From Deltaproteobacteria bacterium (lineage in GTDB: Bacteria > Desulfobacterota > Binatia > HRBIN30), in the NCBI GenBank assembly GCA_016200585.1, contig JACQEN010000188.1, positions 105-64,104 on the forward strand: a stretch of DNA of 64,000 nucleotides, in the 5' to 3' direction. Position 1 is the stretch's first letter. Every line of letters begins with the position of its first letter. The position numbers and the translations under genes were made by a program. The notes under the pieces were generated by a model. It was not told the origin of the DNA, searched no databases, and saw nothing but the letters and a program-made list of their open reading frames with translations. This document shows positions 4,709-52,036 of the stretch, piece after piece.

Positions 4709-6574
4709 ATGGACCAGCGGGGAACTGCGCTACGACCTTCTTCGGGGATCTCGTCGACTCACGTGCGCAGTTGCGTCTGCGCAACCATCGGACTGCTAGC
4801 GACGCTATTCGCGGCGGCGGCCGCGCCGGCGCAATTGGCTATCGACGGTGGTCCGGTATACGCCGGCAGTGGTGGTGTGAGCGGCAGTTGTACAATTTCT
4901 GGCTCACCCTGCCTGACAGGCGGGGCGACGATGACCTGCAGTGGGCTCAATCCGGCGTCGTTCCAGAAGCTATATTTTGGCATCAAGAATAGTTCATTCG
5001 TGAACGGTGACAACGAAACGGGTAGCAGTGGCCCTGCCGCCGGGATTAATCAATTCCATTTTGCCAGCACCTCGAGCAACACGATCGTCTACACGGGCTC
5101 GACGACCGTGTTTGATGTTCCGACGGGAACCACGAAGGCGGTCAATACCAGATTGGTTCTCGCCGTCAGCGCCGGAACCGCATCGGTGGTGGCGACCAAT
5201 GGTAGTCCGGCCGGCAACAGCAACGGCGACATAACGGACGTCTTCCAAGTATCGAGCACCAACCTGACCGTGACGGTGAACTTACAGGCGGCGCTGGCTC
5301 CGACCACAGCGAGCGCCAACTCGTGTCCCACAGTGTTCAACCCGGCGGCGACGCGTGATGGTACCGACAAGGATGTCAGCCACGTGGACCTGGCCTTCTA
5401 CTTCCAGAACCTCCCGACGCCGACACCAACGCGAACGCCAACGTTGACTCCAACCCGGACTCCGACTCTTACCGCAACCCGGACGCCGACCAACACGCCG
5501 ACCTCGACGCCGAGCAGCACACCGACGAACACGCCGACCCGTACACCCACGAGCACGCCGTCCAGCACACCAACCAACACACCGAGCAACTCACCGACGC
5601 AGACACCAAGCGATACGCCAACCGAAACCCCGACCGCCTCGCCGACGGACACACCAACAAGCACGCCGACCGAGACGGAGACCGAAACCCCGACCGAAAC
5701 CCCGACAGAGACCCCAACTGACTCTCCGACCGTGACATCGACAAGTCTACCCACCGGCACACCGACAGGTACGCCAACCGCCACGTCCACCCCTACTGTG
5801 ACACGAACGCCGACACGGACGCCGCTCAATTTCACCCCCAACACCGCTACAGCGACGTCTGCGCCAACCGGAACGCCGACCGAGACGCCTACGGAAACGG
5901 TGACCCCGACGCCCAGTGAAACGTTGGCCCCTGGTGTCCCGACCTACACTCCGACGCAGACGCCGACCCAAACTGCGACGCCCGTATCGACACAAACGGC
6001 CACAGATACTCCGACCCCGCTGGGTCAGTGTGCTCTGGCTCCGGTCGCCGGGTGCAAGCTGCCGACGCCGGCGAAGGGCATCTTGTCGCTCAATAGGACC
6101 GCCCTGAATCCCGCCAAACACACAATGTCTTGGAGCTGGTTGAAGGGCGCGGATACGCAGCTCACGGAGCTCGGCGATCCCACCACGGCAACCAACTACA
6201 GGTTGTGTCTCTACGACGGGTCGAACACGTTGATCATGGACGTCTCGGTGCCCGCCGGCGGGCTTTGCGGAACCAACCCGAAGCCGTGCTGGAAATCGAC
6301 GCGCACCGGATTCAAGTACTCGAACCGGCTGGGCACCCCGAACGGAGTCACCAGCGTGCGTTTGCAGTATGGCCCGATCGGTAAGGCGAAGCTCACGATC
6401 AAGGGGAAGGGACTGAATCTCAATCTGCCGGCATTGCCGTTGGCACAATCTCCCAATCCGGTGCGTGTCCAGCTGGTCAACAGCTCGACGACCGCTTGTT
6501 GGGAGGCGAGCTACAGTTCGCCTGCGACCAGCGCGGCTGGTAGCACCTTGAAGTGGAAGGATCGCAATGACTGA
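4709..6574 (+). CDS. Secreted modular protein P1: unassigned N-terminal domain, about 200-aa Pro/Thr linker, Cys-bearing C-terminal module
   Basis: ATG 4709 preceded by AAAGGGGGGG. Signal-like [21 protein letters not shown] linker aa 270-471 of the track ORF. C-terminal module (6029-6571) alignable with the C-terminus of the 40371 protein. Confidence 0.7.
5414..6019 (+). repeat. In-frame Pro/Thr-rich low-complexity linker coding region (xTPT units)
   Basis: Translation is [40 protein letters not shown]... The antisense strand yields the spurious VGV-rich ORFs listed in the track. Confidence 0.9.
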
Positions 6575-6759
6575 GTGGCAGGAGAAGCTGCGGCCGGGTC
6601 GCGCGGCTTTGCCGTCGCCGGCCGGCAACCGGGGCCAAAAGGGGAGAGGTCGAAGGCGCGTCGCATTTGACCTAACACGGTAACGATCAAGGCGTCGCGG
6701 TGGTTTCGCGTTTCGGCTTGGTATAGCCTCGGCGCGCCGAAACGATGCATCTGTAGACC

Positions 6760-9528
6760 ATGATACGTCTTCTGCTGATCGAAGATGACGACAGCGACGC
6801 GCTCCTCATCACCAACGAGCTGCGACGCTGCGGCTATGAGGTGATGTGGGAGCGAGTAGACAGCGCCGCAGCCCTTGAGGCAGCCCTCGCCGGCCAGCGC
6901 TGGGATGCGATTACCTGCGATTGGGTCATACCGAGCTTCAGCGCTTCCGCGGCGCTCGAGATTCTGTGCCGATGCGGTGTTGATGTGCCGATCATTGTCG
7001 TGACGGGCGAGGTCGGAGAAGAAGTCGCCGTTTCTGCCATGCGGGCCGGAGCGCACGACGTCGTCAGCAAACGCCACCTGGCGCGCCTCGTTCCCGCGAT
7101 CGAGCGCGAGCTGCGCGAAACGGAAGTGCGCCGGGCACGCAAACGTGCCGAGGATGCTCTCAAGGAAAGCGAGCGGCGATTCCGCTCACTCATCGAGAAG
7201 GCACTGGATTTGGTGGGGATCGTCGAAGCGGACGGTACGATCCGCTATGCCAGCCCGTCGCACGAAGAGGCAACGGGCTACAAGCCCGAAGAGTTGGTGG
7301 GGAAGAACGCCTTCGACTTCGTGCATCCCGACGATCGTGCGCGGGTGCTCCGCGGCTACGCCTCAGGGCTGAGGTTCCAGGAGCAGCGAGGCTCTACCGA
7401 ATATCGTTTTCGTCGCAAGGACGGTTCGTGGTGCGTGATCGAAGGGGTTGCCAGAGACCTGACCAATGATCCTCTGGTGCGAGGAGTCCTGGTCAACTCG
7501 CGCGACATCAGCAAACGCAAACAAGCCGAACACATTCTGCGCGAGCGCACCCGCTTGGTCGATGCGGTGTTCGAGCACAGCGTCAGCTGCCTGGTTCTGC
7601 TCGATCGGCACTTCAATTTCGTGCGCGTCAACCCCGCCTATGCTCGTGCTTGTCGGCGCGAGGTCGACGATTTCGTCGGCCGCAATCACTTTGATCTCTA
7701 CCCTTCCGATGCACGGGCGATCTTCGAGCAAGTCGTCGAGACCAAACAGCCGTTCTGCACGATCGCCAGGCCGTTCTCGTTTCCCGACCAACCCGAGCGC
7801 GGGGTGACGTATTGGGATTGGACGCTGGTGCCGTTGCTCGACGAACACGGCGAGGTGGAGTTCTTGCTCTTCTCCTTGCACGACGTTACCGAACACGTTC
7901 GGGCGCTCGACGTCGTGCGCGCCAACGAGGAACGACTGCAGGTTGCGCTGCAGGTTGCCGACATTGCCGCGTTCAACCAGGACCGCGACTTGCGCTACAC
8001 GTGGATGGACAATCCGCAGCTGGGATACTCTCTCGAACAGGTCCTCGGCCGGACCGACGCTGATTTGCTTCCATCCGGCGTCGCCGAGCGCATCATGGAA
8101 ATCAAACGCGGCGTGATCGAAACGAACGTCGGCGCTCGCGAGGAGGTCCGCGTCGACAGTGACGATGGCCGAACCCGGTACTATGATCTTGCCGTCAAGC
8201 CTTTGTGTGACGCGGCCGGGAAGGTTGTCGGCTTGACGGGCGCGTCTTTCGACATCACCGAACGCAAGCGAGCAGAAGAAGCTCTGAGGGCGGACGCCGT
8301 CCGTCTCGAGACGTTGCAGGAGATCTATCGCGCTATCCTCGAAGCTCGTTCCATTCCCGCGCTTGCCGCGGCGGCGCTACGGCGTATCCGTCAGTTGATT
8401 CCCTGCGATCTGGCGATTCTGCTCTTGTTCGATGTCGAGACGCAGGTCGCGCGCGTCGTTGCGGTCGAGGCGATCGATCCGGAACGGGTTCGTGACATAG
8501 TGGAGTTTCCCTTGGGTGATTTTTCCGCTCTTTCTGCGCTTGCCGAGCATCCCGAGATATCCTTGGACGACATTGCCGGGTTGGTCATACGTTCCCCGAT
8601 GATCGAACGCCTGGCCAGCCCGGGCCTCCACTCGGTGCTGATCGAAGCGCTGATCGTCGAGGGGAAGATTCTCGGCACTCTGAATCTCGCCGCGGTTCGT
8701 CGCGCGGCGTTTACAGCTGATCATTGCAAGATTGCGCGCGAAGTCGCGGATCAACTGTCCATCGCCATCCACCAGACGCACCTGCACGAGCAACTGCAAC
8801 GGCATGCCGCGGAACTGGAGCAGAGGGTGCGTGAACGTACGGCACAGCACGAAGCCGCCAATCGTGAGCTGGCGGCGTTCAGCTATTCCGTCTCCCACGA
8901 TTTGCGCGTGCCGCTTCGTTTGATCGGCAGCTTCGGTGAAATCCTCCAGGAAGAATACGCCACGACATTGCCGGCCCAAGGCCGAGAGTACATCGAGCGC
9001 ATCGTCGCTGCAGCGACGCGCATGGGGCAGCTCATCCAAGACCTCCTCACTCTGTCGCACGTCGTCCAACGAGAGATGACCTCGGTGCCGGTCAACCTCA
9101 GCGAGCTGGCGCAGCTCATCGTGGAGGATCTGCGCCGAGCCGCACCGCAGCGGCGCGTTGAATTCGTTACCGCGCCCGACCTTGTCGCAACCGGAGATCC
9201 TGGTCTGTTGCGCATTGTCCTCGAAAATCTCCTCGGCAACGCCTGGAAGTACACCAGCAAGCATTCGAGTGCACGGATCGAGTTCGGCAGATTCGAACGA
9301 GACGGCGTTGCGACATACTTCGTTCGCGACGATGGCGCCGGCTTCGATATGAAGTCCGGGGAGAAGCTTTTCGGCGCCTTCCAGCGTCTCCACAGTGCAT
9401 CGGAATTCGAGGGGACGGGCATCGGCCTGGCGACGGTGCAACGCATCATTCAGCGCCATGGCGGCCGCGTTTGGGCCGAAAGCGCCGTTGGCGAGGGAGC
9501 GACCTTCTATTTCACGCTAGGTTCCTGA
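6760..9528 (+). CDS. Hybrid sensor: N-terminal receiver, PAS repeats, GAF, HisKA and HATPase histidine kinase
   Basis: REC (LLLIEDDDSDALLI...AITCDWVIP), PAS-like segments (RYASPSHEEATGYKPEELVGKNAFDFVHPDD), H-box FSYSVSHDLRVPLR, G-boxes DDGAGFD and GTGIGLATVQRII. Confidence 0.9.
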   Translation: MIRLLLIEDDDSDALLITNELRRCGYEVMWERVDSAAALEAALAGQRWDAITCDWVIPSFSASAALEILCRCGVDVPIIVVTGEVGEEVAVSAMRAGAHDVVSKRHLARLVPAIERELRETEVRRARKRAEDALKESERRFRSLIEKALDLVGIVEADGTIRYASPSHEEATGYKPEELVGKNAFDFVHPDDRARVLRGYASGLRFQEQRGSTEYRFRRKDGSWCVIEGVARDLTNDPLVRGVLVNSRDISKRKQAEHILRERTRLVDAVFEHSVSCLVLLDRHFNFVRVNPAYARACRREVDDFVGRNHFDLYPSDARAIFEQVVETKQPFCTIARPFSFPDQPERGVTYWDWTLVPLLDEHGEVEFLLFSLHDVTEHVRALDVVRANEERLQVALQVADIAAFNQDRDLRYTWMDNPQLGYSLEQVLGRTDADLLPSGVAERIMEIKRGVIETNVGAREEVRVDSDDGRTRYYDLAVKPLCDAAGKVVGLTGASFDITERKRAEEALRADAVRLETLQEIYRAILEARSIPALAAAALRRIRQLIPCDLAILLLFDVETQVARVVAVEAIDPERVRDIVEFPLGDFSALSALAEHPEISLDDIAGLVIRSPMIERLASPGLHSVLIEALIVEGKILGTLNLAAVRRAAFTADHCKIAREVADQLSIAIHQTHLHEQLQRHAAELEQRVRERTAQHEAANRELAAFSYSVSHDLRVPLRLIGSFGEILQEEYATTLPAQGREYIERIVAAATRMGQLIQDLLTLSHVVQREMTSVPVNLSELAQLIVEDLRRAAPQRRVEFVTAPDLVATGDPGLLRIVLENLLGNAWKYTSKHSSARIEFGRFERDGVATYFVRDDGAGFDMKSGEKLFGAFQRLHSASEFEGTGIGLATVQRIIQRHGGRVWAESAVGEGATFYFTLGS

Positions 9529-9556
9529 AGACGCATCTGCGACGTCGATTACAAGC

Positions 9557-11029
9557 ATGATATGCCGGTGTGCCATACAGCTCTCAAGCGATGCCAGGGT
9601 CTCACGACGCGTATTCCCGTCACGGCACCTTCTCCTCCCGTTTGTACTGTCGGCTCTTTTCTTTGCCGGGTGCGGCTCCGAAGCGCCGGTCGAATCTTCG
9701 ACGTCTCGGTCGCCCGGCTATCACACCGACGGCCACATTTTGCGCGACGGACAAGGGCGCGCGATCATCTTGCGCGGCGTCAACCTGCCCAATGATTACG
9801 ATCAGCGCGGACCCGACAAGCAAGTGCGGCCGCCGGCCGAGGTCTTTCACCACATCGCCGACTCGGGCTTCAACGCCGTGCGCTTGGTCATCGAATGGTA
9901 TCAGATCGAAGCGCAGCAGGGAGTCTACAACCAGGCCTACCTGGAGCTGGTGCGACAGCATGTCCAGTGGGCACAGGAAGCTGGGCTGTTTGTCTTCGTC
10001 GACATGCACCAGGACCTCTTCGGCCGTGGCTTTGGCGGCGACGGTGCGCCGTATTGGGCTTGCGATCAATCGTACTACGACAGCTACAAACCCGGCCCGG
10101 TGTTCATTCTTAACTACCTGTCGAGCCAGGTGCGGGCGTGCTTCCAAAAATTCTGGAGTACTCCGGCGCTGCGCCACAGTCACCAGTCGGCGGCGCGCGC
10201 TGCCGCCGAGCTCATCGCCGGCTACGATCATGTACTCGGCTTCGATACGTTCAACGAACCCTCTCTCGGTACGGCCGCAATTCCTGTCTTCGAGCCGTCG
10301 TTGCTGTTGCCGTTTGACGAAGAGTTTGCCGCCTTCGTCGGCGAAGCGATTCCCGGACGCGCCTACTTCTTCGAGCCGACGTTCAGCTTCACCGTGTCGC
10401 GGCAGTGCTTCTTTGAAGGTCCGGTGACCGCCTTCACCGGCGTGTTTGCGCCGCACTACTACAACCCCAGCGTCGAGGGCATGCAGCTGTGGGACGGCGA
10501 CGCAAGCGCCGTGCACGACGTCGTCGCCCTCGCGGCGGACACGGCGCAGCGGCTGCAGGTGCCGTGGATTCTGGGTGAAATGGGCGGCTCGAAATTTACT
10601 CCGAACCTCTCGGAGTATCTGTTCACGTTGTATGGGGAGCTGGACCGGCAGATGGCCGGCGCTTTTCTGTGGCTGTACGAGAAGGGCGACAACGGCTTTC
10701 ACTTGATCGACCAGGCGACCAACGACTGGACCCCGCACGCGCGCGCCTTCCTGCGACCCGTGCCGTCCTTGGTCGCCGGCACACCAACCGCCTTCACGTG
10801 GGACTACGCCGGCGGCGTTTTCCGATTTTCATGGGATGCCGATCCGACTGCCGGGCAGACCGAAATCATTCTGCCTGCGTGGATCGTCCACGTCGGTTTC
10901 GAGGTCAGCGTGAACGGTGCGCCTGTCACTCCTCAGCTCAACGCACGCGGCAACCGCTTGATCCTCCCCGCCGGCCGGCGCGGCTCGACGACGCTCGAGA
11001 TGCACGTCGACGGTCCGTACCCGGGCTAA
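9557..11029 (+). CDS. Glycoside hydrolase family 5 lipoprotein (endoglycoceramidase/cellulase-like)
   Basis: Lipobox LSALFFAGC, ILRGVNL, FNAVRLVIEW, VFVDMHQDLFG...GDGAPYWAC, catalytic-type FNEP and GEMGG motifs. Confidence 0.8.
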   Translation: MICRCAIQLSSDARVSRRVFPSRHLLLPFVLSALFFAGCGSEAPVESSTSRSPGYHTDGHILRDGQGRAIILRGVNLPNDYDQRGPDKQVRPPAEVFHHIADSGFNAVRLVIEWYQIEAQQGVYNQAYLELVRQHVQWAQEAGLFVFVDMHQDLFGRGFGGDGAPYWACDQSYYDSYKPGPVFILNYLSSQVRACFQKFWSTPALRHSHQSAARAAAELIAGYDHVLGFDTFNEPSLGTAAIPVFEPSLLLPFDEEFAAFVGEAIPGRAYFFEPTFSFTVSRQCFFEGPVTAFTGVFAPHYYNPSVEGMQLWDGDASAVHDVVALAADTAQRLQVPWILGEMGGSKFTPNLSEYLFTLYGELDRQMAGAFLWLYEKGDNGFHLIDQATNDWTPHARAFLRPVPSLVAGTPTAFTWDYAGGVFRFSWDADPTAGQTEIILPAWIVHVGFEVSVNGAPVTPQLNARGNRLILPAGRRGSTTLEMHVDGPYPG

Positions 11030-11101
11030 GTCCTTTCGCTTTGCGTTCTCGGAGCCGTGCCTCGCATCACCAAAACATCTGACCTGCGTCATACAGATCA
11101 T

Positions 11102-11124
11102 CCGACCGGTCGGTAGGATGGCGG
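11102..11124 (+). promoter_or_regulatory. Conserved 23-nt element, copy 1 (CCGACCGGTCGGTAGGATGGCGG), upstream of and into the start of NarG-like paralog 2
   Basis: 20/23 identical, ungapped, to 17105-17127. The 5' half is the perfect palindrome CCGACCGGTCGG. Confidence 0.4.
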
Positions 11125-13967
11125 CTGCGATGGCTCGCGGATTCACACGGCGTGACTTCCTACGCGCAACTGGTGCAGCAACCGTAGCGCTCGGACTGAC
11201 GCGTCTGCAGTTCGTCGGCATGGCGCAAGGACAAGTTGCCGGACAGGCGGTGCCGGGTGCGCTTCCAGAATATCGCGCTTGGGAAGATCTGTACCGCCAG
11301 CGCTGGGTCTGGGATCGTGTCGCTCGCGGCACGCACACGATGACCAATTGCGTTTCCGGCTGCGCCTGGGATCTCTACGTCAAGGACGACATGGTGTGGC
11401 GCGAGGAACAGAAGTCGCCGTACACCGCTTCGTCTCCCGGCTTGCCCGACTTCAACCCGCGCGGCTGCCAGAAGGGTGCGTGCGGTTCAAGCTTGATGTA
11501 CTCGCCGTCACGCGTGCGCTATCCGCTGCGGCGCGTCGGCGAACGCGGCGAGGGACGCTGGCAGCGCATATCGTGGGACGAGGCGTTGGCGGCGGTAGCG
11601 AAAGACATGGTCGATGCGATCGACAAGGAAGGTCCGGCCTCGGTGCTCTGCGAGCTCGGACCGAACATTGGTGCCGGACCGAACAGCGCCGCACCGATTC
11701 GCTTCTTCCGCATGCTCGGCTCGCCGGCGACCGATTCGATGGCGCAGATCGGCGACCTTTCCGTCGGCGCGACCATTACGCTCGGCAACGGGCACCCGTG
11801 CGGCTCTTCCGACGACTGGTGGCGCTCGTCGTATCTCGTGCTGTGGGCCTTCAATCCGTCGGCAACGCGCATTCCCGACGCGCACTTTCTCTACGAAGCA
11901 CGCTACCGCGGCGCTAAGCTGGTGACGATTTGTCCCGATCTCAACAACAGCAGCATCCACGCCGATCTGTGGCTCAACCCGCGTCCGGGAACCGATGCGG
12001 CGCTCGCACTCGGCGCCGCACAGGTGATTGTTTCGGAGAACCTCTACAACACCGCGTACGTCGCCGAGCAAACGGATCTGCCGCTGTTGGTGCGCAGTGA
12101 CAACAACCGCTTCGTGCGTGAGTCCGACCTGAAGAAGGGCGGTTCCGACAGCGCCTTCTACGTGTGGGACGCGGCGCGGAAGCAGGTCGTGCCGGCTCCG
12201 GGCAGCGGCAATCTCCAAAGCTTGGACAGCACCGGCATCAAGCCCGACGTGACCTTCAACGGAACGATGAGCATCGGCGGCAAGTCGGTCGCCGTGCGCA
12301 CCGTGTTCTCATTGTTGCGCGAGCGCCTCGACCGCGACTACCGGCCGCAGCAGGTGGCCGAGATCACCGGCGTGTCGGCGGCGGCGGTACAGCAGTTCGC
12401 GCGCGAGTTTGCCCACGCTCCGGCCGCCCTCATCCTGTCGCAGTGGGGTCAGTGCAAGTTCCTCCATGGGGATCTGGCGCAGCGCGCGCAGATTCTTCTG
12501 GCGTCGCTGACCGGAAATCTCGGCCGTGCCGGCGGCGGCTGGCGTGCCGGCGGTTTTTTTGCACCGGAAGGTTTTGCGTTGCTGGGCATGCAGGAGCAGC
12601 TCGGCTTGATGAACCTGGCGACGTTCGCGGCGAAGAACTATCTCGATCCGGCCAAGAGCGAGCAGTCGTTTTCGAGTTACTTCGTGCCCGGTTCGGTGTG
12701 GCACCAGGTGCACGGCGGCCTGGAGGATATCTCCGGCGACGCGCGCCACGGCGACCGAAGCTCGCCCCGTTCGCCAAAGGAATATCTGCACGAAGCGATC
12801 GACAAGAAGTGGTTTCCGGTGTTTCCAGCACCGGGCAAAGCGCCGCACGTCATCCTTTCGATCTTCGGCAATGTCCTGCGCCACTCGCGCAACAACACCA
12901 AGCTGCTCGAGACGTTGTGGCCGAAGGTGAAGCTGGTCGTCGATGTGAACTTCCGCCTGAGCGAGACCAGCCGCTGGTCGGACATCGTGCTGCCCGCTGC
13001 CTTTTGGTACGAGAAGGCCGACCTAAAATACCTGGCGTCGTTCATTCCCTACGTGCACCTCGGCGACCGCGCCGTTGCGCCGCTCGGCGAAGCCAAGCCG
13101 GAGTGGGAGATCTTCGCGTTGCTGGCCGAGGCCGTCGCCAAGGAAGCGCGCCAGCGCGATCTCAAACCGTACACCGACATCGCCGAGGCGCAGCGCGATG
13201 CACGGCGGCTCGACGAGGCGTTCACCGACAGCGGCCGGTTCGGTCCTAAAGACGAAGACAAAGCGCTCGAATTCGTGCTGACGTATTCGAGCCCGACCAA
13301 GAAAGTCTCGCTCGAGGATATGCGTACGGCCGGAGCCGTGCGCTTCCGCAGCACCGGTGCGCCGGGCGGCGCTGCCGGGTTCTACAGCGACTACTCGATG
13401 GACGAGCCGCTGGTGCCGCAGCGCTGGTTCGTCGAGAAGAAGCAACGCTGGCCGACACTTACCGGGCGGCAGCAGTTCTACGTCGACCATCCGTGGTTCC
13501 TGGAATGCGGCGAAGCACTGCCGGTCTACAAACCGCCGCCGCCGGCGGGCGGCGACTATCCGTTGACGCTCAGCGGCGGCCACACGCGCTGGAGCATTCA
13601 CTCACAGTGGCGCGATCACCGTCCGTTGTTGCGCCTGCAGCGCGGCGAGCCGGTGGTCTACATCAGCGAACGCGATGCCGCGGCACGCAACATCAACGAC
13701 AACGATCTGGTGCGTGTGCGCAACGACCTCGGTGCCTTTGTGCTGCGCGCCAAGATTGCGCGCTACGCCCAACCCGGCCAGGTGCTCGTCTACCACGCCT
13801 GGGAGCCGTACCAGTTCCGCGACGGACGCAGCGACCATGCGATCATCCCCAGCCCTTTCAAGCCGACGGCGTTGGTAGGCGACTACGGCCACCTGCACTG
13901 GGGGTACGCCCACTGGGAACCGAACCAGGTCGACCGCGACACAAAGGTCGAGATCGAACGGGTTTGA
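11118..13967 (+). CDS. NarG-like (type II DMSO-reductase family) molybdopterin oxidoreductase catalytic subunit, paralog 2, Tat-exported
   Basis: Twin-arginine signal MARGFTRRDFLRATGAATVALG. H73-x4-C78-x3-C82-x34-C117 FS0-like motif. NarG-like WEDLYRQRWVWDRV. C-terminal GGHTRWSIHSQWRD and YGHLHWGYAHWEPNQVDRD. ATG 11130 is an alternative start. Confidence 0.9.
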   Translation: MAAAMARGFTRRDFLRATGAATVALGLTRLQFVGMAQGQVAGQAVPGALPEYRAWEDLYRQRWVWDRVARGTHTMTNCVSGCAWDLYVKDDMVWREEQKSPYTASSPGLPDFNPRGCQKGACGSSLMYSPSRVRYPLRRVGERGEGRWQRISWDEALAAVAKDMVDAIDKEGPASVLCELGPNIGAGPNSAAPIRFFRMLGSPATDSMAQIGDLSVGATITLGNGHPCGSSDDWWRSSYLVLWAFNPSATRIPDAHFLYEARYRGAKLVTICPDLNNSSIHADLWLNPRPGTDAALALGAAQVIVSENLYNTAYVAEQTDLPLLVRSDNNRFVRESDLKKGGSDSAFYVWDAARKQVVPAPGSGNLQSLDSTGIKPDVTFNGTMSIGGKSVAVRTVFSLLRERLDRDYRPQQVAEITGVSAAAVQQFAREFAHAPAALILSQWGQCKFLHGDLAQRAQILLASLTGNLGRAGGGWRAGGFFAPEGFALLGMQEQLGLMNLATFAAKNYLDPAKSEQSFSSYFVPGSVWHQVHGGLEDISGDARHGDRSSPRSPKEYLHEAIDKKWFPVFPAPGKAPHVILSIFGNVLRHSRNNTKLLETLWPKVKLVVDVNFRLSETSRWSDIVLPAAFWYEKADLKYLASFIPYVHLGDRAVAPLGEAKPEWEIFALLAEAVAKEARQRDLKPYTDIAEAQRDARRLDEAFTDSGRFGPKDEDKALEFVLTYSSPTKKVSLEDMRTAGAVRFRSTGAPGGAAGFYSDYSMDEPLVPQRWFVEKKQRWPTLTGRQQFYVDHPWFLECGEALPVYKPPPPAGGDYPLTLSGGHTRWSIHSQWRDHRPLLRLQRGEPVVYISERDAAARNINDNDLVRVRNDLGAFVLRAKIARYAQPGQVLVYHAWEPYQFRDGRSDHAIIPSPFKPTALVGDYGHLHWGYAHWEPNQVDRDTKVEIERV

Positions 13968-14018: not shown

Positions 14019-16838
14019 TCACGGCAAGCAAACCAAGTCGATCAAATCGCCATCGTAGTGACCGGCGCTTGGGTAGAACCGCATGCGCAAACGCTGGCGC
14101 GTCTTCACCAGGTGCCCGCGACTCTTCCTCAACGGCACTTGGATCAAGGCTGGCTGCGAGCAAGTCGTGGTGGTGAGGGCTGGCGAGAACGGGAACTCCT
14201 TGATGGGACAATAGCCGTCGCCACTGCCGATTGTGGTGTCGCAATCGCTCGACAGGGAGCACAATTGCCCGCCGTTCGCGCCGATGCACGTCCCTTGGGA
14301 GGCGGCCCCAACGCTCAGGAGGGAGCTCACGAGTGCATCGCGGTTCCTCTTGTTGAGCTTTTTGTCTTGGGTCGACGGGCCTACGATCATCGCCTTCACG
14401 ACGTTGTTCTGTGAAGCGCAGGCAAAGCGCGTCTCGTGCACGTTGAAGCACATCGACAGCTGGAAGGTGCACGTGTTGTCACCAAGAGAATGGTCGCAAG
14501 ACGGGTCGTTGTTCTTGCACTCCAGGCGTTTGCCAGGCAGCCCTTTCGAATTCAGCGCCGCCGGCGCTTGGGTACACCACTCTTGCAGGCAATCGTTGAC
14601 CTCGGAGTTGCAATAGCCGGGATTGAGATCCGGCGAGTTGCCGGAGCAAAGCGTCGGCGTAGGACTTTGCGCCGGTGTATCTGTGGGTGTCGGCGTTGGC
14701 GTTGGCGAGGTGGAAGCGGTCGGCGACGGTGGACTGGTCGCTGTGTCCGTCGGTGTCGGTGTGCCCGTCGGTGTTGGTGTGTCACTTGCAAGAGGGGTGT
14801 TACTCGGCGTCGGCGTTTCGGTCTGCGTCGGCGAAGACGTATCGGTCGGCGTGACCGTAGGTGTGAACGTTGGCGTTGCCGTCGGTGTGTCGGTCGGCGT
14901 GTTGGTCGGTGTTGGGGGCAGGTACTCGTAGGTGACGCAGATCGTCGCGTTGGCCTGCGTCGAGGCCTGTGTGACGATATTCCCCGCACCTGTGGCCGAG
15001 AAGCTTGCGGTTGCCGTCACCGGGAGCGTGATGACTCCGGGGCCGACGAAATCGCTGACCGGCAGATACGGTGAGCGGACCGCGGTGTTCGACGCCGTCA
15101 CTCCGAGCTGCGTGGCTCCCGAAGTTCCTCCGAAATCGAGGTTGCCGTCGTAGGCGGAGAAATTGAAGTTGAGGTTGTTCGCCGGTAGGGCCACGACCAG
15201 GGGTAAGGTGGGCGGCGTCAGCGAGATCGTCCCTTGGCCGATTGCCGTGACGTTGGCCGGCGACGCATCGAGACTCTCGAGCTTGACGTCCTGAACGATG
15301 GTTGCCGAAACGGAGAGGTCGACGTGGTTCAGCGTGCCCAGCGACGGGTCGAACAAATTCAGATGAACGATATTACTCCAGTTGGTCGTGGTCAGCGAGA
15401 TGCTGTCACACGACACCTGCGTCGTGAACGGCGTGTTGGTTACCGTCGCCGTCTGCGTCGGTGTACCGCTTTGCGTCGGGGTCGAGGTGAAGGTGTTGGT
15501 CGCCGTGCGCGACGGTGTGGCGGTGCGCGTCGGGGTCTGCGTTGCCGTTTGGGTGATGGTCGGTGTGTTCGTCGGCGTATTCGTTAGCGTCGGCGTGTTG
15601 GTAATCGTCGGCGTGTTGGTGATGGTCGGTGTGTTGGTAATCGTCGGTGTGTTGGTGATCGTCGGCGTTTCGGTGATCGTCGGCGTAATCGTCGGCGTGT
15701 TGGTGTTCAATGGCGTATTGGTTGGCGTGCGTGTCCGCGTCGGCGTGCGCGTCGGCGTCTGCGTGCGCGTCGGGGTCTGTGTCGACGTATCGGTGGGCGT
15801 ACCTGTTTGAGTCGGGGTGCCGGTAATCGTTGGCGTGTTGGTGATCGTCGGCGTGTTGGTGATGGTCGGTGTCAGGGTGACGGTCGGCGTATCGGTAACC
15901 GAGGGTGTATTGGTCGGCGTGTTGGTGATCGTCGGTGTGTTGGTAATGGTCGGCGTATTGGTCGGCGTACGCGTCGGCGTTTGTGTCGGCACCAGCGTGA
16001 TCGTCGGGGTATTCGTCGGCGTTCTGGTCGGCGTCTGCGTGCTGGTGACGGTCGGTGTATTGGTGATGGTCGGCGTGGAGCTCGGAGTGCGGGTTGGCGT
16101 TTGCGTCGGCGTGTTGCTCGGCGTGAAGGTCGGTGTCGCCGGCTGATAGGTGTAGTTGACACAAACGGTAACCCCGGCCTTCGTCGACGCCTGGCTGACG
16201 ACGTTGCCGGCGCCACTGGTGCTGAAGCTGGCGACCGACGTGACCGGCATCGTAACGTTGCCCACGCCGCTGAAGTCGCTCATCGGGAGATACGGGGAGC
16301 GTGCTGCACTGCTGCTCGTGCTCACACCCAAGTCGGTGCTTCCCGACGTGCCGCCGAAATCCAGTGTGCCGTCGTAGGCACTGAAGTTATGGGTGACGAT
16401 ATTCGTGGGCGACGTCGCCAGGGTCGGTACCGTCGGCGGCGTCAACGTGATCGTCGCAACTCCGGTGCCGGTGACCGTTGCCGGCTGGGAGTCGAGGCTT
16501 TCCATTTTTACGTCCTGCACCATGGTCGCGTTCATGGTGAGGTCGACGTTGGTCAGGGTACCCAAGGACGGGTCGAATTTGGCGACCGTGACCGACAGCG
16601 ACCAGTTCGTCGTGGTGGAAGGAATGGTGTCGCAACTGGACTGCGTTGCCGCTTCGGCGGAACCGGCGAGCACGAGCGATCCGGCTACGAGCATGAGCAC
16701 GGAAACGATGCTCCCGACTGCTCGCCGCTTGAGCTCACAGTCGACCGGTTTGTTTGCAAGGCGACGCACTGCTTCGTTGTCAACGCACCGTCGCGCTGCG
16801 TCGTCGGAGATACAAATCGTTTTCGCTTTTGCGCCCAT
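14019..16838 (-). CDS. Secreted modular protein P2: two copies of a 164-aa NW...FDPSLGTL...[14 protein letters not shown] domain, two PT linkers, Cys-rich C-terminal module
   Basis: ATG 16838 preceded by GGGGG. Signal-like [26 protein letters not shown]. The duplicated domain is reminiscent (from memory) of choice-of-anchor-type domains of PEP-CTERM proteins. 15 Cys in the last about 209 aa. Confidence 0.75.
14649..14921 (-). repeat. PT linker 2 of P2 (in-frame low complexity)
   Basis: Translation is [43 protein letters not shown]... Confidence 0.9.
14922..15413 (-). repeat. Intragenic domain duplication, copy 2 (aa 491-654 of track ORF)
   Basis: Gap-free alignment with copy 1 gives 103/164 identical residues (hand count). 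Confidence 0.85.
15423..16145 (-). repeat. PT linker 1 of P2 (about 240 aa), including tandem 18-bp units at 15589-15708
   Basis: [18 protein letters not shown]... Five consecutive 18-bp units GTCGGYGTGTTGGTRATS on the + strand at 15589-15678, then degenerate units. Confidence 0.9.
16146..16637 (-). repeat. Intragenic domain duplication, copy 1 (aa 83-246 of track ORF)
   Basis: [28 protein letters not shown]... aligns with [28 protein letters not shown]... over the same length of 164 aa. Confidence 0.85.
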
Positions 16839-17104
16839 GGCTCTACCCCCGATCGCCGTTTCGGCTCCCCCCTCCCACGGCAACTACACTGCCCGGGCGA
16901 GTATCAACGGTGGTGACACAGCGTGTTTCATGCCACCTGCAAGATTTCTGATTTTTCGGATGAAGCGGTGCTCAGCGACGATTCTTGGCCGCTTCAACAC
17001 GTTCGGCGCGTACGTCTCTGAACACCGGGGCAATGCTTCCGTCGTCAGAGGCGCTCGCTGACATCCGTCACATGCTTCTCTGCCCTGCCGCATTCCGGAA
17101 TCTA

Positions 17105-17127: not shown

Positions 17128-17169
17128 GTAGTATCGCGCTCTCGATGGCGCGCTGCTGGAGGTGTGAGC

Positions 17170-20040
17170 ATGAATGTCACGCGTCGCAACTTCATCTGCT
17201 CGGCCGGAGCCGCAACGCTACTGTTGTCGCTTGATCAACTGACGTTCCAACGCTGCGGCGCAGGCGGAGCGGCGTTGGCCGAGTCGCCGCCGTTGCCGGA
17301 CTATCGCGGCTGGGAGGACGTTTACCGCCAGAAGTGGGCGTGGGACAAAGTCGTGCGCAGCTCGCACTTCGTCAACTGCTGGTACCAGGCGCACTGCGCG
17401 TGGGACGTCTACGTGAAAGACGGCCTGGTGTGGCGCGAAGAGCAAGCCGCCGATTACCCCAAGGTCCGCAGTGACACGCCGGATTTCAACCCACGCGGCT
17501 GTCAGAAGGGTGCTTGCTACAGCGCCCGCATGTACGACCCGACGCGTGTGAAGTATCCACTCAAGCGCGTCGGCGAACGCGGTTCGGGCCAGTGGCAGCG
17601 TTTGTCGTGGGAGCAGGCGCTTAACGAGATCGCCGACCTGATGATCGACACCGTTACCCAGGAGGGAACCGATCGCATCATTTGGTCGCTCGGGCCGCTG
17701 TACACGTTCGGCACACAGGCGGCAGGGCACAGCCGGCTGTCAATGCTGATGGACAGCTCGACGCTCGACATGAACACGGAGATCGGCGACGGCCATCCCG
17801 GCGCGGCCGTCACCTTCGGCAAAATCGTCGCCGAGCGCTCGCTCGATGACTACTTCTTTTCCGACGTGATTCTGATCTGGGGCTGCAACCCGTTGTACAC
17901 GCAGATACCCAACGCGCACTTCTGGACCGAAGCGCGCTACAAGGGCGCCTATATCGTTACCATCGCGCCCGACTTCAACGCTTCAGCCATTCACGCCGAC
18001 CAGTGGGTGCCGTTGAACGTCGGTACCGACGCGGCCTTTGCGCTGTCGCTGGCACAGGTCATCGTCAGCGAGAAGTTGCACAACGAGGCGTTCCTGCGCG
18101 AGCAGACCGACATGCCGTTCCTGGTGCGCAACGACAACGGTCGATTCCTGCGCCAGAGCGATATGGTGAAGGGCGGTTCGAAAGACATCCTCTACGTCTT
18201 CGACGAGAAGACGAAGCAGGTGGTCGAGGCGCCACGCGACACCCTCAATCTCGGGGCGTTGACGCCTGCACTCGAGGGCAGCTTCGATGCGAAGACGTTG
18301 AACGGTACGGTCAAAGTGCGTCCGGTGTTCGCCTTGCTGCGCGAACGGCTCGACCGCGACTACAAGCCGGAGCAGACCGCAGCGACGACGGGAGTCGGCG
18401 CCGCCGTCGTGCGCGACCTGGCACGCCGCATCGGCAAGGCCAAGGCGGTGTCCAACGTCACCTCCAGCAACATCGCCAAGTTCTATCACGGCAACCTGAT
18501 GGAGCGCTCGCAGATCCTGGTATTCGCGCTGTGCGGCCACATGGGCAAGAAGGGCAGCGGCTTCAGCGCCTTTCCGTTCCTGACGCAGGACGGCGTTGAG
18601 ATGTTCGCCATGCTCAAAAGCCCGGGCTGGATGGGCAAGCTCGGTTTGCTGGCGCGGATGTATCCGGTGATCAGTGAGCTCAAGAAGCCCGGCATGACCG
18701 ACGAAATGGTTCGCTACGAAGCCGGTAACTGGCAGTTCCGCGAGGGCGGCTTCGTGTCCGGCGTGATGTTCTGGAACATTCACGGCGGACTGATGGAGCT
18801 GAGCGGACGCTCGAAGGAGTGGGATCCCTATCTGAAGCGGCCGGTGTCGGAGTACATGCACGAGGCACTCGACAAGGGCTACCAGTACGTTTCACCCAAA
18901 CCAGGTACACCGCCGCGCATCATCTTCGAGCTCGGCAGCAACATCGTGCGGCGCTTGCGTGGCTATCCCGCTTTGTTCAAGACACTGTTCCCGAAGCTCA
19001 AGGCCTACGTTACCATCGACTGGCGCATGAGCTCTACCGCGATGGCTTCGGATTACGTGCTACCTGCTGCCGGCTGGTACGAGAAGGCCGAGCACAAGTG
19101 GGGCACGCCGCTGATGCCCTACATTCATGCCGGCACGAAAATCGCCACCTTTCAGGAAGCAAAGCCCGATTGGGAGGTGTGTGCGCTGGTGGCGAAGGCA
19201 GTGCAGGAGCGCGCCAAGGCGCGCGGCATCACGACGTTCAAAGACCGGCACGGCAACGAACGACCGTTGGACAGTTTGTACGACGACTTCACCATGGGCG
19301 GCACGTACACCGAGAACGACGACGAGAAGGTCGCCGCGGTGTTGGTGAAGGAGGCGAGCAACCTCACCGGCGTCGACTGGGAAGAGCTCAAGAAGAAAGG
19401 CTACGCGCGCTTCACCGGCGTGGGAAAAAGCGGTGTGTCGGTGGGCAATCAGTGCGACATCAAACCTGACGACACCGTCAGCCCCTTTCAGTATCACGTC
19501 GAGCAGAAGGCGCCGTACCCGACGCTGACGCGCCGCATCCAGTTCTACATCGACCATCCGTTCTACCTCGAGCTCGGTGAGACGCTGCCGACGCACAAGG
19601 ATCCGCCCAAGTCGGGCGGCGACTATCCGCTGACGTTGACCGGCGGGCACACCCGCTGGTCGATTCACGCCGCCTGGCGCGACGATGCGCGTATGCTGCG
19701 CCTGCAGCGCGGCGAGCCGTTGATGTACGTCAGCGTCGTCGACGCCCAGGCCCGTAACATTGCCGACGGTGATTTGGTCGAGGTGCGCAACGACATCGAC
19801 AGCTTCCACATCCGTGCCAAGACCTCGCCGTCGGTGCGCCCGGGGCAGGTGATCATCTACCACGCCTGGGAGAACTATCAGTTCCGCGACGGCAAGGGTT
19901 TCCAAAACCTCATCCCCAGCCCGATCAACCCCGTCGAGCTCGCCGGAGGCGAGGGACACTTGCGGCCGATTCAGATCTGTCTGCAGCCGAGCCAGAACGA
20001 TCGCGACACCAGAGTCGAGATACGTCGTGTAGCGGCTTGA
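17170..20040 (+). CDS. NarG-like (type II DMSO-reductase family) molybdopterin oxidoreductase catalytic subunit, paralog 3, Tat-exported
   Basis: GGAGG at 17158-17162, 7 nt before ATG 17170 (the track starts at GTG 17164). Tat signal MNVTRRNFICSAGAATLLLSL. H66-x3-C70-x5-C76-x34-C111. GGHTRWSIHAAWRD and LRLQRGEP. Confidence 0.9.
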   Translation: MNVTRRNFICSAGAATLLLSLDQLTFQRCGAGGAALAESPPLPDYRGWEDVYRQKWAWDKVVRSSHFVNCWYQAHCAWDVYVKDGLVWREEQAADYPKVRSDTPDFNPRGCQKGACYSARMYDPTRVKYPLKRVGERGSGQWQRLSWEQALNEIADLMIDTVTQEGTDRIIWSLGPLYTFGTQAAGHSRLSMLMDSSTLDMNTEIGDGHPGAAVTFGKIVAERSLDDYFFSDVILIWGCNPLYTQIPNAHFWTEARYKGAYIVTIAPDFNASAIHADQWVPLNVGTDAAFALSLAQVIVSEKLHNEAFLREQTDMPFLVRNDNGRFLRQSDMVKGGSKDILYVFDEKTKQVVEAPRDTLNLGALTPALEGSFDAKTLNGTVKVRPVFALLRERLDRDYKPEQTAATTGVGAAVVRDLARRIGKAKAVSNVTSSNIAKFYHGNLMERSQILVFALCGHMGKKGSGFSAFPFLTQDGVEMFAMLKSPGWMGKLGLLARMYPVISELKKPGMTDEMVRYEAGNWQFREGGFVSGVMFWNIHGGLMELSGRSKEWDPYLKRPVSEYMHEALDKGYQYVSPKPGTPPRIIFELGSNIVRRLRGYPALFKTLFPKLKAYVTIDWRMSSTAMASDYVLPAAGWYEKAEHKWGTPLMPYIHAGTKIATFQEAKPDWEVCALVAKAVQERAKARGITTFKDRHGNERPLDSLYDDFTMGGTYTENDDEKVAAVLVKEASNLTGVDWEELKKKGYARFTGVGKSGVSVGNQCDIKPDDTVSPFQYHVEQKAPYPTLTRRIQFYIDHPFYLELGETLPTHKDPPKSGGDYPLTLTGGHTRWSIHAAWRDDARMLRLQRGEPLMYVSVVDAQARNIADGDLVEVRNDIDSFHIRAKTSPSVRPGQVIIYHAWENYQFRDGKGFQNLIPSPINPVELAGGEGHLRPIQICLQPSQNDRDTRVEIRRVAA

Positions 20041-40344: not shown

Positions 40345-40370
40345 ACTTGGGGCACCGCAAGGAGAGAGTC

Positions 40371-42098
40371 ATGGTGCGTAAAAGGATGATCACGGCGATC
40401 GCGATGGCGTCAGTGCTCGCCACGGTGGGCGTCGAAAGCGCTGCCTTGGGCGCCTCGAGCACGTCTCTCTTGCTGCCCCAGTCGACAGCCTTCTCCGTTC
40501 TCGGACACTCATGCGGCGGCATCCAGGAGCAGGCGTTGGCGACGGGATTCGATGCGGCGAGCGGTTATCCCACTGGGAACGTGTACCTGCAGACCCGTTG
40601 TGGCGGAAGTGGGAGAGGAGGGGGATACCACAGCAACACCTACTCCGCATGGGTCGATGTAACGTGGGACTACACTGGAACGGTGGTCTCTTACATTCCT
40701 GCCGGTGCACCGACAAGTATCGACCCGACCTTCTCTGCTTTCGACTCCTTCGGCAACGAGATCCATAACCAGCTGAACGCCGTCAACGTGCTTCCGGCCA
40801 ACTGCACGGTCGGCGATACCACTTATTGCTCGTATCGTGCCTATCTCAGCCTGTCGTCCACCTTCGTTCCCCCGCCGCGGGTAACGAGCGTGTCCGTGAC
40901 GTTTGGGCCGGCTGCGGGTGGTACGGGTGTGACTGTCACCGGGACAGGATTTACCGGCGCCACGGCGGTCACCTTCGGCGCTACCGCCGCGCCGAGCTTC
41001 ACGGTGAACGGGGACACGTCGATTACGGCTGTCTCACCAGCGGCGAGTGCGGGCACGGTCGACGTCACGGTCACTACGCCGGGCGGTACGAGCTCCGCGA
41101 GCGCAACGGATCAATTCACATTCGTCGCTGCCCCCGCAGTATCGGGCCTGAGCCCGGACGGTGGTACGGTCGACGGCGGGACCCTGGTGGCGATCAGCGG
41201 CAGGAGCTTCATCGAGGTCAGCGCCGTCAACTTCGGAGACACCCCGGCCGGATTCACGGTGAACGACGATTCGTCGATTACGGCTGTGTCACCCGCGGCA
41301 GAGGCGGTCGACACGGTCCACGTTACCGTTGTTACGGTGGGTGGAATGAGCGCCACGACCGCCGCGGACGAATTCACCTACACGCCATCGACCGCGACGT
41401 CGGCCTGCGGTGACGGGAAGCTCGATCCGGGCGAGCAGTGCGATGACGGCGCGGCCAACGGCACGCCGGGCGATTGCTGCACAGTTACTTGTACGTTTCA
41501 GCCGGCGGGGACGGCTTGTACGGATGATGGCAGCCTGTGCACCTCGGATGTGTGCGACGCGGCGGGCATGTGCACCCATCCGATTTCCCCGTGGCCTGCG
41601 TGCACACCGCCGGATGTGGCTGCGGGGGCGTCGTTGATCATGCGAACGCGGACATCTGGAGGAAACGAGGCGCAGTTCCAGTGGGGCGAGGGGCCGGTGG
41701 TGTCACTGGCGGACTTCGGCAACCCCAGCGGGAGCGACCTTCTTCAGCTTTGCGTCTATGACCAGACCGGGCCAGACACGTATGTGCTTGCCCTGACCGG
41801 CTCGCCGTCGTTGAGCGGTGGTGGAGCATGGACCGCAGGACCGGCGGGGTGGAGATTCAGGAGTAAGACTGGGGCACCCGACGGCATCACTGGCGTGACG
41901 CTGAAGGCCGCGACGATGCCGCTCAAGGCCAAGGTGCGGGTGAAGGCGATGAACAGCCCGGGATTTGCACTGCTCCCGTTGCAGTCGGCTCCGAGTGTCG
42001 TAGCGCAGGTCAAGACCTCGCTCGGCACCTGCTGGGGCGCAACCTTCTCGACGCCTACGGTGAACACCGCGAAGGAGTTCAAGGCGAAGTCGGACTAG
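40371..42098 (+). CDS. Secreted modular protein P3: unassigned N-domain, two IPT/TIG-like repeats, Myxococcus-type Cys-rich repeat, C-terminal module shared with P1
   Basis: GGAGAGAG before ATG 40371. Signal MVRKRMITAIAMASVLATVGVESAALGA. TVTGTGFTGATAVTFG and AISGRSFIEVSAVNFG. CGDGKLDPGEQCDDG. C-terminal module at 41598-42095. Confidence 0.75.
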   Translation: MVRKRMITAIAMASVLATVGVESAALGASSTSLLLPQSTAFSVLGHSCGGIQEQALATGFDAASGYPTGNVYLQTRCGGSGRGGGYHSNTYSAWVDVTWDYTGTVVSYIPAGAPTSIDPTFSAFDSFGNEIHNQLNAVNVLPANCTVGDTTYCSYRAYLSLSSTFVPPPRVTSVSVTFGPAAGGTGVTVTGTGFTGATAVTFGATAAPSFTVNGDTSITAVSPAASAGTVDVTVTTPGGTSSASATDQFTFVAAPAVSGLSPDGGTVDGGTLVAISGRSFIEVSAVNFGDTPAGFTVNDDSSITAVSPAAEAVDTVHVTVVTVGGMSATTAADEFTYTPSTATSACGDGKLDPGEQCDDGAANGTPGDCCTVTCTFQPAGTACTDDGSLCTSDVCDAAGMCTHPISPWPACTPPDVAAGASLIMRTRTSGGNEAQFQWGEGPVVSLADFGNPSGSDLLQLCVYDQTGPDTYVLALTGSPSLSGGGAWTAGPAGWRFRSKTGAPDGITGVTLKAATMPLKAKVRVKAMNSPGFALLPLQSAPSVVAQVKTSLGTCWGATFSTPTVNTAKEFKAKSD

Positions 42099-48834: not shown

Positions 48835-48881
48835 TCGGTCCGGCGTCAGGTTCAGGGGAAGCCGCCGCGACCTGGACGCTG

Positions 48882-51754: not shown

Positions 51755-52036
51755 ATCTTTGTGGTTAGCCGAGCATTCAACCGAGCGTCATGATCGATCC
51801 CGGCCAAGCCGCCTGACCTTTGTCACATCGGTCGCGTTTTCGTTTCCTGCAAGCCTCTGCGCTGGATGCTTTGGAGCGTGAAGAGACTTGCGTGGCCAGG
51901 TGCGGATGCCTGTGCCGGCGCAGCAAATGGCCGACACTCGACGTTGGCCGAGTGTTGGCGCGAATCCTGCGTTGCCACCTTTTGTCGGCGCCAAGGTGTT
52001 TCGCGACGCTCCGGCGAAGAAATCGAGGAGGACGTA

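Follow-up and report, generated by a model that had tools for sequence, protein, structure and literature searches.

The window analysed here is a 64,000-nucleotide stretch of contig JACQEN010000188.1, from a Deltaproteobacteria bacterium assembly that GTDB assigns to the Binatia (GCA_016200585.1). It contains two genes, P1 and P3, whose putative secreted products differ completely except for a Cys-bearing C-terminal domain of about 175 residues, referred to here as the module (Table 1). An earlier note on this DNA had aligned the two tails by eye and proposed that they are copies of a portable module shared by surface proteins. The mechanical open reading frame (ORF) of P1 (4607-6574, + strand) begins upstream of the probable start codon; ahead of this codon lies a GGGGG-rich stretch that resembles a ribosome-binding site, and after it comes a signal-peptide-like h-region. 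In P3, the ORF of which is listed as 40347-42098 (+), the signal peptide MVRKRMITAIAMASVLATVGVESAA follows the probable start codon. The P1 N-terminal domain has no Pfam or NCBIfam match at E<=1, and it weakly resembles the N-terminal parts of three other module-bearing proteins (L018, L012 and L015; E 1e-9 to 7e-11, with high compositional bias). The two TIG domains of P3 can also be read as choice-of-anchor Z repeats (NCBIfam NF058597 CoaZ_rpt_PGGG, E 6.5e-15, 55 bits against a cut-off of 30), and they are followed by a Cys-rich repeat that matches TIGR02232 (E 6e-5, 22.8 bits, cut-off 20.8) and, weakly, DUF4215. The TIGR02232 match covers P3 residues 352-385 and thus lies upstream of the module, outside the module proper. 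The parts ahead of the two modules are therefore unrelated, as the earlier note had described.

Table 1. Positions of the P1 and P3 genes and of their parts in the window.
Feature	Positions	Strand	Description
P1 gene	4709..6574	+	621 aa plus stop; probable true frame from ATG 4709
P1 N-terminal passenger domain	4838..5416	+	about 195 aa; acidic, Lys-poor; no family assignment
P1 Pro/Thr-rich linker	5417..6028	+	about 200 aa; joins passenger to module; read from the translation
P1 module copy	6029..6571	+	181 aa; ends ...LKWKDRND-stop
P3 gene	40371..42098	+	ATG 40371 is the probable true start; AGGAG ribosome-binding site upstream
P3 IPT/TIG domain pair	40875..41381	+	Pfam TIG, E 1.5e-21, two stretches
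P3 Myxococcus-type Cys-rich acidic repeat	41400..41570	+	CGDGKLDPGEQCDDG...; stalk ahead of module
P3 module copy	41571..42095	+	175 aa; divergent; ends ...FKAKSD-stop

The tails of P1 and P3 align by BLASTP over their full length with 27% identity and 49% positives (E 1e-14), and they form the sole significant segment when the complete proteins are compared. Searching the whole window by tblastn with either tail returned just two copies, those of P1 and P3. Their membership in one family was confirmed independently of the pairwise alignment, since a hidden Markov model (HMM) built from 155 database modules, from which P1 and P3 had been left out, scored both in a six-frame scan of the window with filters off (P1, 199 bits, E 1.7e-60; P3, 108 bits, E 1.3e-32). 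The likeness that had been seen by eye is thus significant, and the anchors on which it was based (W-x2-G, G[DN]P, LC[LV]YD, GF.Y, G.AK, LP, VQL, CW.A.YS and the FK.K tail) are conserved columns of the family. The boundaries drawn in the earlier note were right for P1, the module of which starts exactly at the first conserved Cys. For P3 they were about nine residues too late: its module begins at Cys409, the first conserved Cys, and not at position 41598.

In the same HMM scan every other ORF of the window was at noise level. This includes the tail of a further protein, P4 (tail at 53975-54397), which had been put forward as a distant relative; that suggestion has to be abandoned, as the P4 tail gives a BLASTP E of 0.14 and no HMM signal, and finds no match but itself in the full set of retrieved proteins and loci. 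P4 itself (51866-54400, + strand) is a putative secreted protein of 844 residues, in which a weak PKD-like segment and a Pro/Thr-rich linker are recognisable, and its C-terminal part of about 140 residues, containing four Cys, is a separate region without family match that is no kin of the P1/P3 module.

Searches with the P1 and P3 modules against Pfam-A and NCBIfam gave nothing at E<=1, and a profile search of PDB sequences gave nothing at E<=10 except for two chance matches. An exosortase-related NCBIfam match in P3 was rejected as spurious (E-value 0.6, at the N-terminus of the protein). A word-indexed search yielded six metagenomic relatives with 38-50% identity. Starting from an alignment of eight sequences (A1), 1.84 billion cluster representatives were searched exhaustively by HMM. 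With thresholds of E<=1e-3, E<=1e-10 and E<=1e-30, this gave 7,671, 6,528 and 2,723 proteins, respectively; the counts 7,671 and 2,723 refer to clusters at 50% identity. The 243 further relatives obtained in a second indexed search carry no source names other than "hypothetical protein" or "cysteine-rich repeat protein", the latter of which derives from the passenger and not from the module, and none of them has a precomputed Pfam domain on the module. Pfam and NCBIfam scans of 74 full-length members revealed, among the 25 most frequent families listed, no family common to all; the commonest matches concerned the passengers (DUF4215 in 12 members by Pfam, and TIGR02232 in 18 by NCBIfam). The family is not mentioned in the literature searched, and the main genome survey of the Binatota mentions neither secretion, nor the outer membrane, nor module proteins. 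As judged from these comparisons, the family is new, with neither a Pfam or NCBIfam model nor a solved or detectably similar structure, while a portable accessory domain of secreted proteins is in itself a familiar kind of element. The proposal that the module is portable and unassigned is therefore upheld by the lack of a curated model, by thousands of homologues and by very different passengers.

The consensus of the family comprises an N-terminal part (C-x3-P-x2-GC[RK]-x-P ... K-A-x-L-x-L-K-D ... D-x-L-x-W-K-W-x-K-G ... DFGDP), a middle part (Y-x-LC[VL]YD ... PAGG-x-C-x-G-KPCWK ... GF-x-Y-x-D ... G-x-AKI-x-VKGKG) and a C-terminal part (LPL ... V-x-VQL ... CWEA-x-YS ... FK[DA]K[SA]D), with conserved aromatic residues (W, W, Y, Y, F, Y, W, Y, F). 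Six Cys residues are each retained in at least 150 of the 155 copies, and they behave as three pairs, in alignment columns 13/24 (a C-x10-C hairpin), 90/239 (LC.YD...CW) and 116/129 (GG.C...PCW). The first two pairs are essentially invariant; the residues of the third are jointly present in 150 copies and jointly lost in four. P3 and P0005 are among the copies without this third pair, whereas the P1 module contains all six Cys. Such covariation of Cys pairs is a signature of disulfides and points to an oxidising environment outside the cytoplasm. AlphaFold2 models of the isolated modules are all-beta, with 11-13 strands and one short helix, and have high confidence (P1, mean pLDDT 91.5, pTM 0.89; P3, mean pLDDT 85.2, pTM 0.83). 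Foldseek searches with both models against the PDB, and once against BFVD, returned no match at E<=1e-3 and a best TM score of 0.36. The best matches of the P1 model were sugar-binding domains of GH2 enzymes (TM 0.24-0.31, E>=0.026, not significant), and archaellins were also among the best (TM 0.31-0.36), with TM 0.36 and E 0.014 as the top match of the P3 model. The module is thus modelled as a beta-sandwich of about 175 residues without a detectable close solved relative; no named domain was found for it with Pfam, NCBIfam or Foldseek.

The modules and the proteins that carry them differ strongly in charge. Modules have a median isoelectric point (pI) of 8.9 (above 8 in 79%), a mean net charge of +4.9 each, and contain 7.7% Lys and 4.0% Arg, whereas the passengers have a median pI of 4.1, a net charge of -7.4 per 100 residues, and contain 0.8% Lys and 3.2% Arg. 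For comparison, the remaining ORFs of the window contain 3.0% Lys and 7.8% Arg. The two copies of the window follow this pattern: Lys makes up 7.2% and 5.1% of the P1 and P3 modules (pI 9.7, with a net charge of +12, and pI 9.1, respectively) against 1.0% and 0.3% of their passengers. Lys or Arg is kept in at least 60% of the members at 18 columns, often alternating along strands (KAKI.VKGKG, FKYKDK). The Lys to Arg ratio of the module is about 2:1 although the genome background favours Arg, and this preference in a genome of 63% G+C indicates that lysine itself, and not just positive charge, is under selection.

The module is located at the C-terminus in 142 of 153 proteins. Of the copies that reach the end of the profile, 94% (239/254) stop 0-2 residues from the end of the protein, and 206 of these 239 end in Asp, within the end motif FK[DA]K[SA]D. 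The 40 residues ahead of the module are rich in Thr, Gly, Pro and Ala; in 37 of 127 cases they form a linker with at least 40% Pro plus Thr, and in 40 of 127 they contain at least four Cys. This C-terminal placing behind PT-rich or Cys-rich linkers also supports the proposal of a portable module. By a crude hydrophobicity test, signal peptides are present in P1, P3 and 63 of 92 full-length relatives. The passengers include beta-propellers (DUF5122/delta-60, PD40, NHL, FG-GAP, BNR/sortilin), proteases (subtilases, M6/LGF metalloproteases), proteins that resemble carbohydrate-active enzymes (CAZymes; GH8, DUF4185, F510_1955 glycosylhydrolase, endoglycoceramidase), and a varied remainder (CBM96/DNRLRE, beta-helix, Vgb-lyase-like, lactonase, Lcl_C, PPC, disintegrin-like, DUF4215 Cys-rich repeats, choice-of-anchor Q). 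A number of passengers hit models whose names refer to proteins dependent on the type IX secretion system (T9SS), PEP-CTERM or MYXO-CTERM, so that the module fills the slot held elsewhere by sorting or anchoring signals.

Other arrangements exist next to the prevailing one. In P0011, P0017, P0085 and P0144 the module follows the signal peptide and is succeeded by a linker and other domains; in P0048, P0049 and P0130 it is internal and flanked by two PT linkers; P0007 and P0008 carry two copies in tandem; and P0022, P0160 (MEO6026568.1, Candidatus Binatia), P0168 and P0174 consist of a signal peptide and the module alone, as does P0218, which represents a cluster of 27 members of 187-200 residues. 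The genes for P0160 and P0022 were called independently and lie in ordinary chromosomal surroundings. P0238 was rejected as a stand-alone form: this 203-aa protein looks like the last piece of a split gene, being the last of three adjacent calls from one larger module-bearing gene (L064, 5951-8612), which was probably split by frameshifts in a long-read assembly. Taken together, the module is an autonomous, disulfide-bonded, basic beta-sandwich, as modelled, that in the great majority of cases, though not always, stands last in secreted proteins and is set apart from their acidic passengers by extended linkers. A second recurrent Cys-containing domain was observed at the C-terminus of P0011 (about 250-405), P0048 (about 505-663) and P0049 (about 515-671), where it follows the module and a PT linker; it reads CGNGF[LI]EPGE.C..CP.DC......, ends in ...C.C.V..P, and has the appearance of a further portable module of this kind.

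Peptides taken from the HMM consensus were used to scan the GTDB species, with one genome for each; this identified 63 loci with 76 modules in 36 metagenome-assembled genomes (MAGs), none of which belongs to a cultured organism. Nearly all matches come from MAGs that bear a Candidatus Binatia or "Deltaproteobacteria" label. The MAGs are labelled Candidatus Binatia (14), uncultured delta proteobacterium (9), Deltaproteobacteria bacterium (5), Polyangiaceae including UTPRO1 (3), unclassified bacterium (2), Thermodesulfobacteriota (1), Candidatus Margulisiibacteriota (1) and Terriglobales (1). GTDB places UTPRO1 and many "Deltaproteobacteria" MAGs of this kind in the Binatia. It should be noted that the exact scan peptides are present in just five of the 155 representative modules, so that the sensitivity of the scan is about 3% and the 63 loci are a gross undercount. 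Up to seven pattern-positive loci were found in a single MAG, three loci (L022, L027 and L039) are tandem arrays of three module-bearing genes each, and the present window of 64 kb contains two copies. These three rough indicators suggest copy numbers of the order of 10^2 per genome, an extrapolation and not a count. P1 and P3 share only 24-27% identity, while P1 is up to 50-60% identical to database proteins, and 30 of 37 copies have their closest relative in a different genome; the modules within one genome are therefore old paralogues. The YebC protein of the window has its closest relatives (80-93% identity) in MAGs with mixed labels, of which "Candidatus Binatia" is the commonest and "Deltaproteobacteria" another, so that the window probably comes from a Binatia genome. 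Some MAGs with the labels Margulisiibacteriota, Terriglobales, Acidoferrales and Limnocylindrales carry the module or a near-identical YebC (L050, DATKMS010000298.1; L059, DASPMH010000555.1; P0288, P0304 and P0353). These labels probably reflect inconsistent taxonomy or mis-binned Binatia-like contigs and not a wide distribution.

The earlier note had also raised the possibility of a dedicated sortase- or secretion-type gene that accompanies the module. None was found beside it in the 63 related loci, of about 12 kb each, and clustering of the ORFs of these loci and the window revealed no gene family that generally accompanies it. A recurrent block exists in about nine MAGs (L010, L021, L023, L024, L026, L028, L029 and L034, at about 6000-12000 in each), in which a disintegrin-like or Cys-rich module protein is followed by a DUF7450 protein of about 650 residues and by a protein of about 1,250-1,350 residues with seven DUF4215 repeats and a Glucodextran_B domain. 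This block was considered as partner machinery and rejected, as it is an orthologous cluster of further secreted Cys-rich proteins. Among the T9SS components SprA/Sov, PorV and PorU, none recurs in the 63 loci, whole genomes not having been profiled. Likewise, nothing suggests linked machinery at the P1 and P3 loci in the window.

Anchoring, sorting and ligand binding had been listed as possible functions of the module. All three stay on the shortlist, and the existence of N-terminal, internal, tandem and stand-alone forms shifts the balance towards an autonomous binding or anchoring domain and away from a strict C-terminal sorting signal. We tentatively favour, with a probability of about 40%, the view that the module, with a conserved lysine-rich surface, acts as a "foot" that binds non-covalently to an anionic polymer of the envelope or matrix and so retains secreted proteins there; the binding, the nature of the ligand and the retention at the surface are what we infer. 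According to this view, proteins bearing the module would be exported by their Sec signal peptides, and the module would fold and become oxidised outside the cytoplasm. Its target there would be an anionic polymer, most probably one from the envelope or matrix of the producer itself such as lipopolysaccharide, capsule or exopolysaccharide, and the acidic, almost Lys-free passenger (an enzyme, a propeller or adhesin-like repeats) would be kept off the surface by the Pro/Thr- or Cys-rich stalk. In other phyla, the corresponding place at the C-terminus is held by PEP-CTERM, MYXO-CTERM or T9SS C-terminal domains (CTDs), and in Binatia it would be held by the module.

Binding domains (SLH, LysM, GW, carbohydrate-binding modules) typically vary in position and occur in tandem or alone, which is atypical of terminal sorting signals, and this is why the binding "foot" is preferred. 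Also in its favour are the size of the family, the confident models of the isolated modules, the Cys pairs and signal peptides, the anchor-like position behind linkers, the diversity of the passengers, the contrast in charge, and the many copies per genome with their tandem gene arrays. Non-covalent anchors such as SLH, GW, LysM and CWB2 are likewise autonomous, occur at either end of proteins, are sometimes repeated and serve diverse passengers; they are often basic and have an anionic envelope polymer as ligand, which is the logic proposed here for the module. However, no similarity in sequence or fold to these anchors was detected, and they belong mainly to Gram-positive envelopes. Several further points weigh against a binding "foot". 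The Foldseek neighbours (TM 0.31-0.36, E>=0.014) are uninformative and hence offer no structural analogy for binding, and all family members come from uncultured organisms. The strong C-terminal bias and the nearly invariant FK[DA]K[SA]D-COOH would also suit a signal that needs a free C-terminus, and the basic charge may have another purpose, such as keeping the protein soluble or offsetting the acidity of the passengers. In addition, the signal-peptide calls are as crude as the test behind them, and the crossing of the outer membrane by these proteins is putative.

The alternative that survives best, though we consider it unlikely, is that the module is a secretion or attachment tag: a lineage-specific outer-membrane translocon or attachment enzyme would recognise the folded module, export the cargo, and possibly cleave or couple it. 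The position of 94% of the copies and the conserved end motif closing in Asp are consistent with this, as are the lineage restriction, massive paralogy and apparent copy number of the family and the extreme diversity of its passengers, some of them from families that elsewhere depend on T9SS, PEP-CTERM or MYXO-CTERM. The disulfides, moreover, imply periplasmic folding before any outer-membrane step. The T9SS sorting domains of Bacteroidota (Por_Secre_tail, type A/B CTDs) are the closest parallel, being folded beta-sandwiches at the extreme C-terminus of diverse Sec-exported proteins, lineage-restricted and massively paralogous, and sharing part of their passenger families with the module, e.g. 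M6-like metalloproteases. However, these CTDs comprise roughly 70-100 residues, so that the module, with its 175 residues, 11-13 strands and three disulfides, is about twice as large. Unlike them, it also occurs N-terminally, internally, in tandem and alone, which argues against a tag in general. Furthermore, the P1 and P3 modules have no sequence match to the curated CTD models (TIGR04183/Por_Secre_tail, type B) or to any other sorting domain at E<=1, and no sorting-domain model falls on the module among the 25 most frequent NCBIfam families listed for the 74 members. One machinery would also need to tolerate paralogues as divergent as P1 and P3. That no conserved machinery gene adjoins the 63 loci is a weak point in this respect, as sorting machineries are often unlinked. 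PEP-CTERM/exosortase, MYXO-CTERM and LPXTG signals share with the module the place at the C-terminus, behind passengers of the choice-of-anchor and Cys-rich repeat kinds, but they consist of a motif, a transmembrane helix and a basic tail, whereas the module is a globular domain of 175 residues ending in FKDKSD. A terminal hydrophobic helix was sought at the ends of P1 and P3 (the latter reads ...KEFKAKSD) and not found.

A more specific form of the same idea, to which we give somewhat less credit, is that the module is the cargo tag of an undescribed export or surface-attachment pathway specific to Binatia, which would serve about a hundred proteins per genome and have dedicated outer-membrane machinery or a coupling enzyme. 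Such a pathway would match the T9SS CTD system in function but have an independent origin, and the conserved lysines or the ...K-x-D-COOH end could be the site of recognition or covalent attachment.

It is improbable that the module is a carbohydrate-binding module (CBM) or another substrate-binding module that aims secreted enzymes at an environmental polymer or mineral instead of the cell. The layout of P1, in which a passenger, a PT linker and a disulfide-bonded beta-sandwich with conserved aromatic residues follow each other, does resemble that of secreted glycoside hydrolases with Pro/Thr-linked CBMs (e.g. of the CBM2 type), and positional flexibility and tandem copies are typical of CBMs as well. 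Some passengers are CAZyme-like (GH8, DUF4185, beta-helix, CBM96/DNRLRE, F510_1955, endoglycoceramidase), and the weak top Foldseek matches of P1 are the sugar-binding jelly-rolls of GH2 enzymes, a similarity that is not significant (TM <=0.31, E>=0.026). However, glycoside hydrolases are a minority among the passengers, which are mostly of other kinds (propellers, proteases, Cys-rich repeats, TIG), no CBM model of Pfam matches the module, which is also larger than these CBMs and lysine-rich, and the roughly estimated 100 copies per genome are far beyond what is usual for a CBM family.

A structural or assembly role without external ligand, as an oligomerisation or capping domain or as a folding or solubility aid for acidic, repeat-rich passengers, is very unlikely: the opposite charges of module and passenger, the compact fold modelled with high confidence and the possibility that stand-alone copies work in trans would fit it, but the passengers are structurally unrelated, which makes a common folding aid implausible, the long flexible PT linkers argue against intramolecular packing, and there is no sign of oligomerisation.

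Binatia (Binatota) are globally distributed and uncultured, and they are known from genome-inferred metabolism alone. A large part of their secreted proteome seems to carry this single unannotated domain, and the family is very large and is predicted to dominate the secretome of this lineage. Defining it would annotate thousands of "hypothetical" proteins and provide a sequence handle for predicting the surface proteome of Binatia, and the module itself, as a compact beta-sandwich that is modelled with confidence and has no close solved relative, lends itself to work on structure and binding. The family could mark a new route of surface display or export; if the module is a sorting tag, it points to a new export or attachment pathway.

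Concerning the surroundings of the two genes, P1 is flanked by a gene for a GMC-type oxidoreductase and one for a PAS/histidine-kinase hybrid, and P3 by a gene for a DUF6600 protein and a PspC/ECF-sigma pair. No RNA run contains the locus among the RNA evidence searched; the window was detected in groundwater metagenomes. At 48336-50603 (+) it encodes a PMT/PMT_2-type glycosyltransferase of the dolichyl-phosphate-mannose protein mannosyltransferase family, assigned by weak matches, and O-glycosylation of the Pro/Thr linkers of P1 and P4 by this enzyme is conceivable. Finally, three paralogous molybdopterin oxidoreductase genes lie inside the window on a stretch of 20 kb (61-2070, 11118-13964 and 17164-20037, all +), and among them are a GH5 cellulase gene (9557-11026) and a 954-aa ORF without family on the minus strand (14022-16883).

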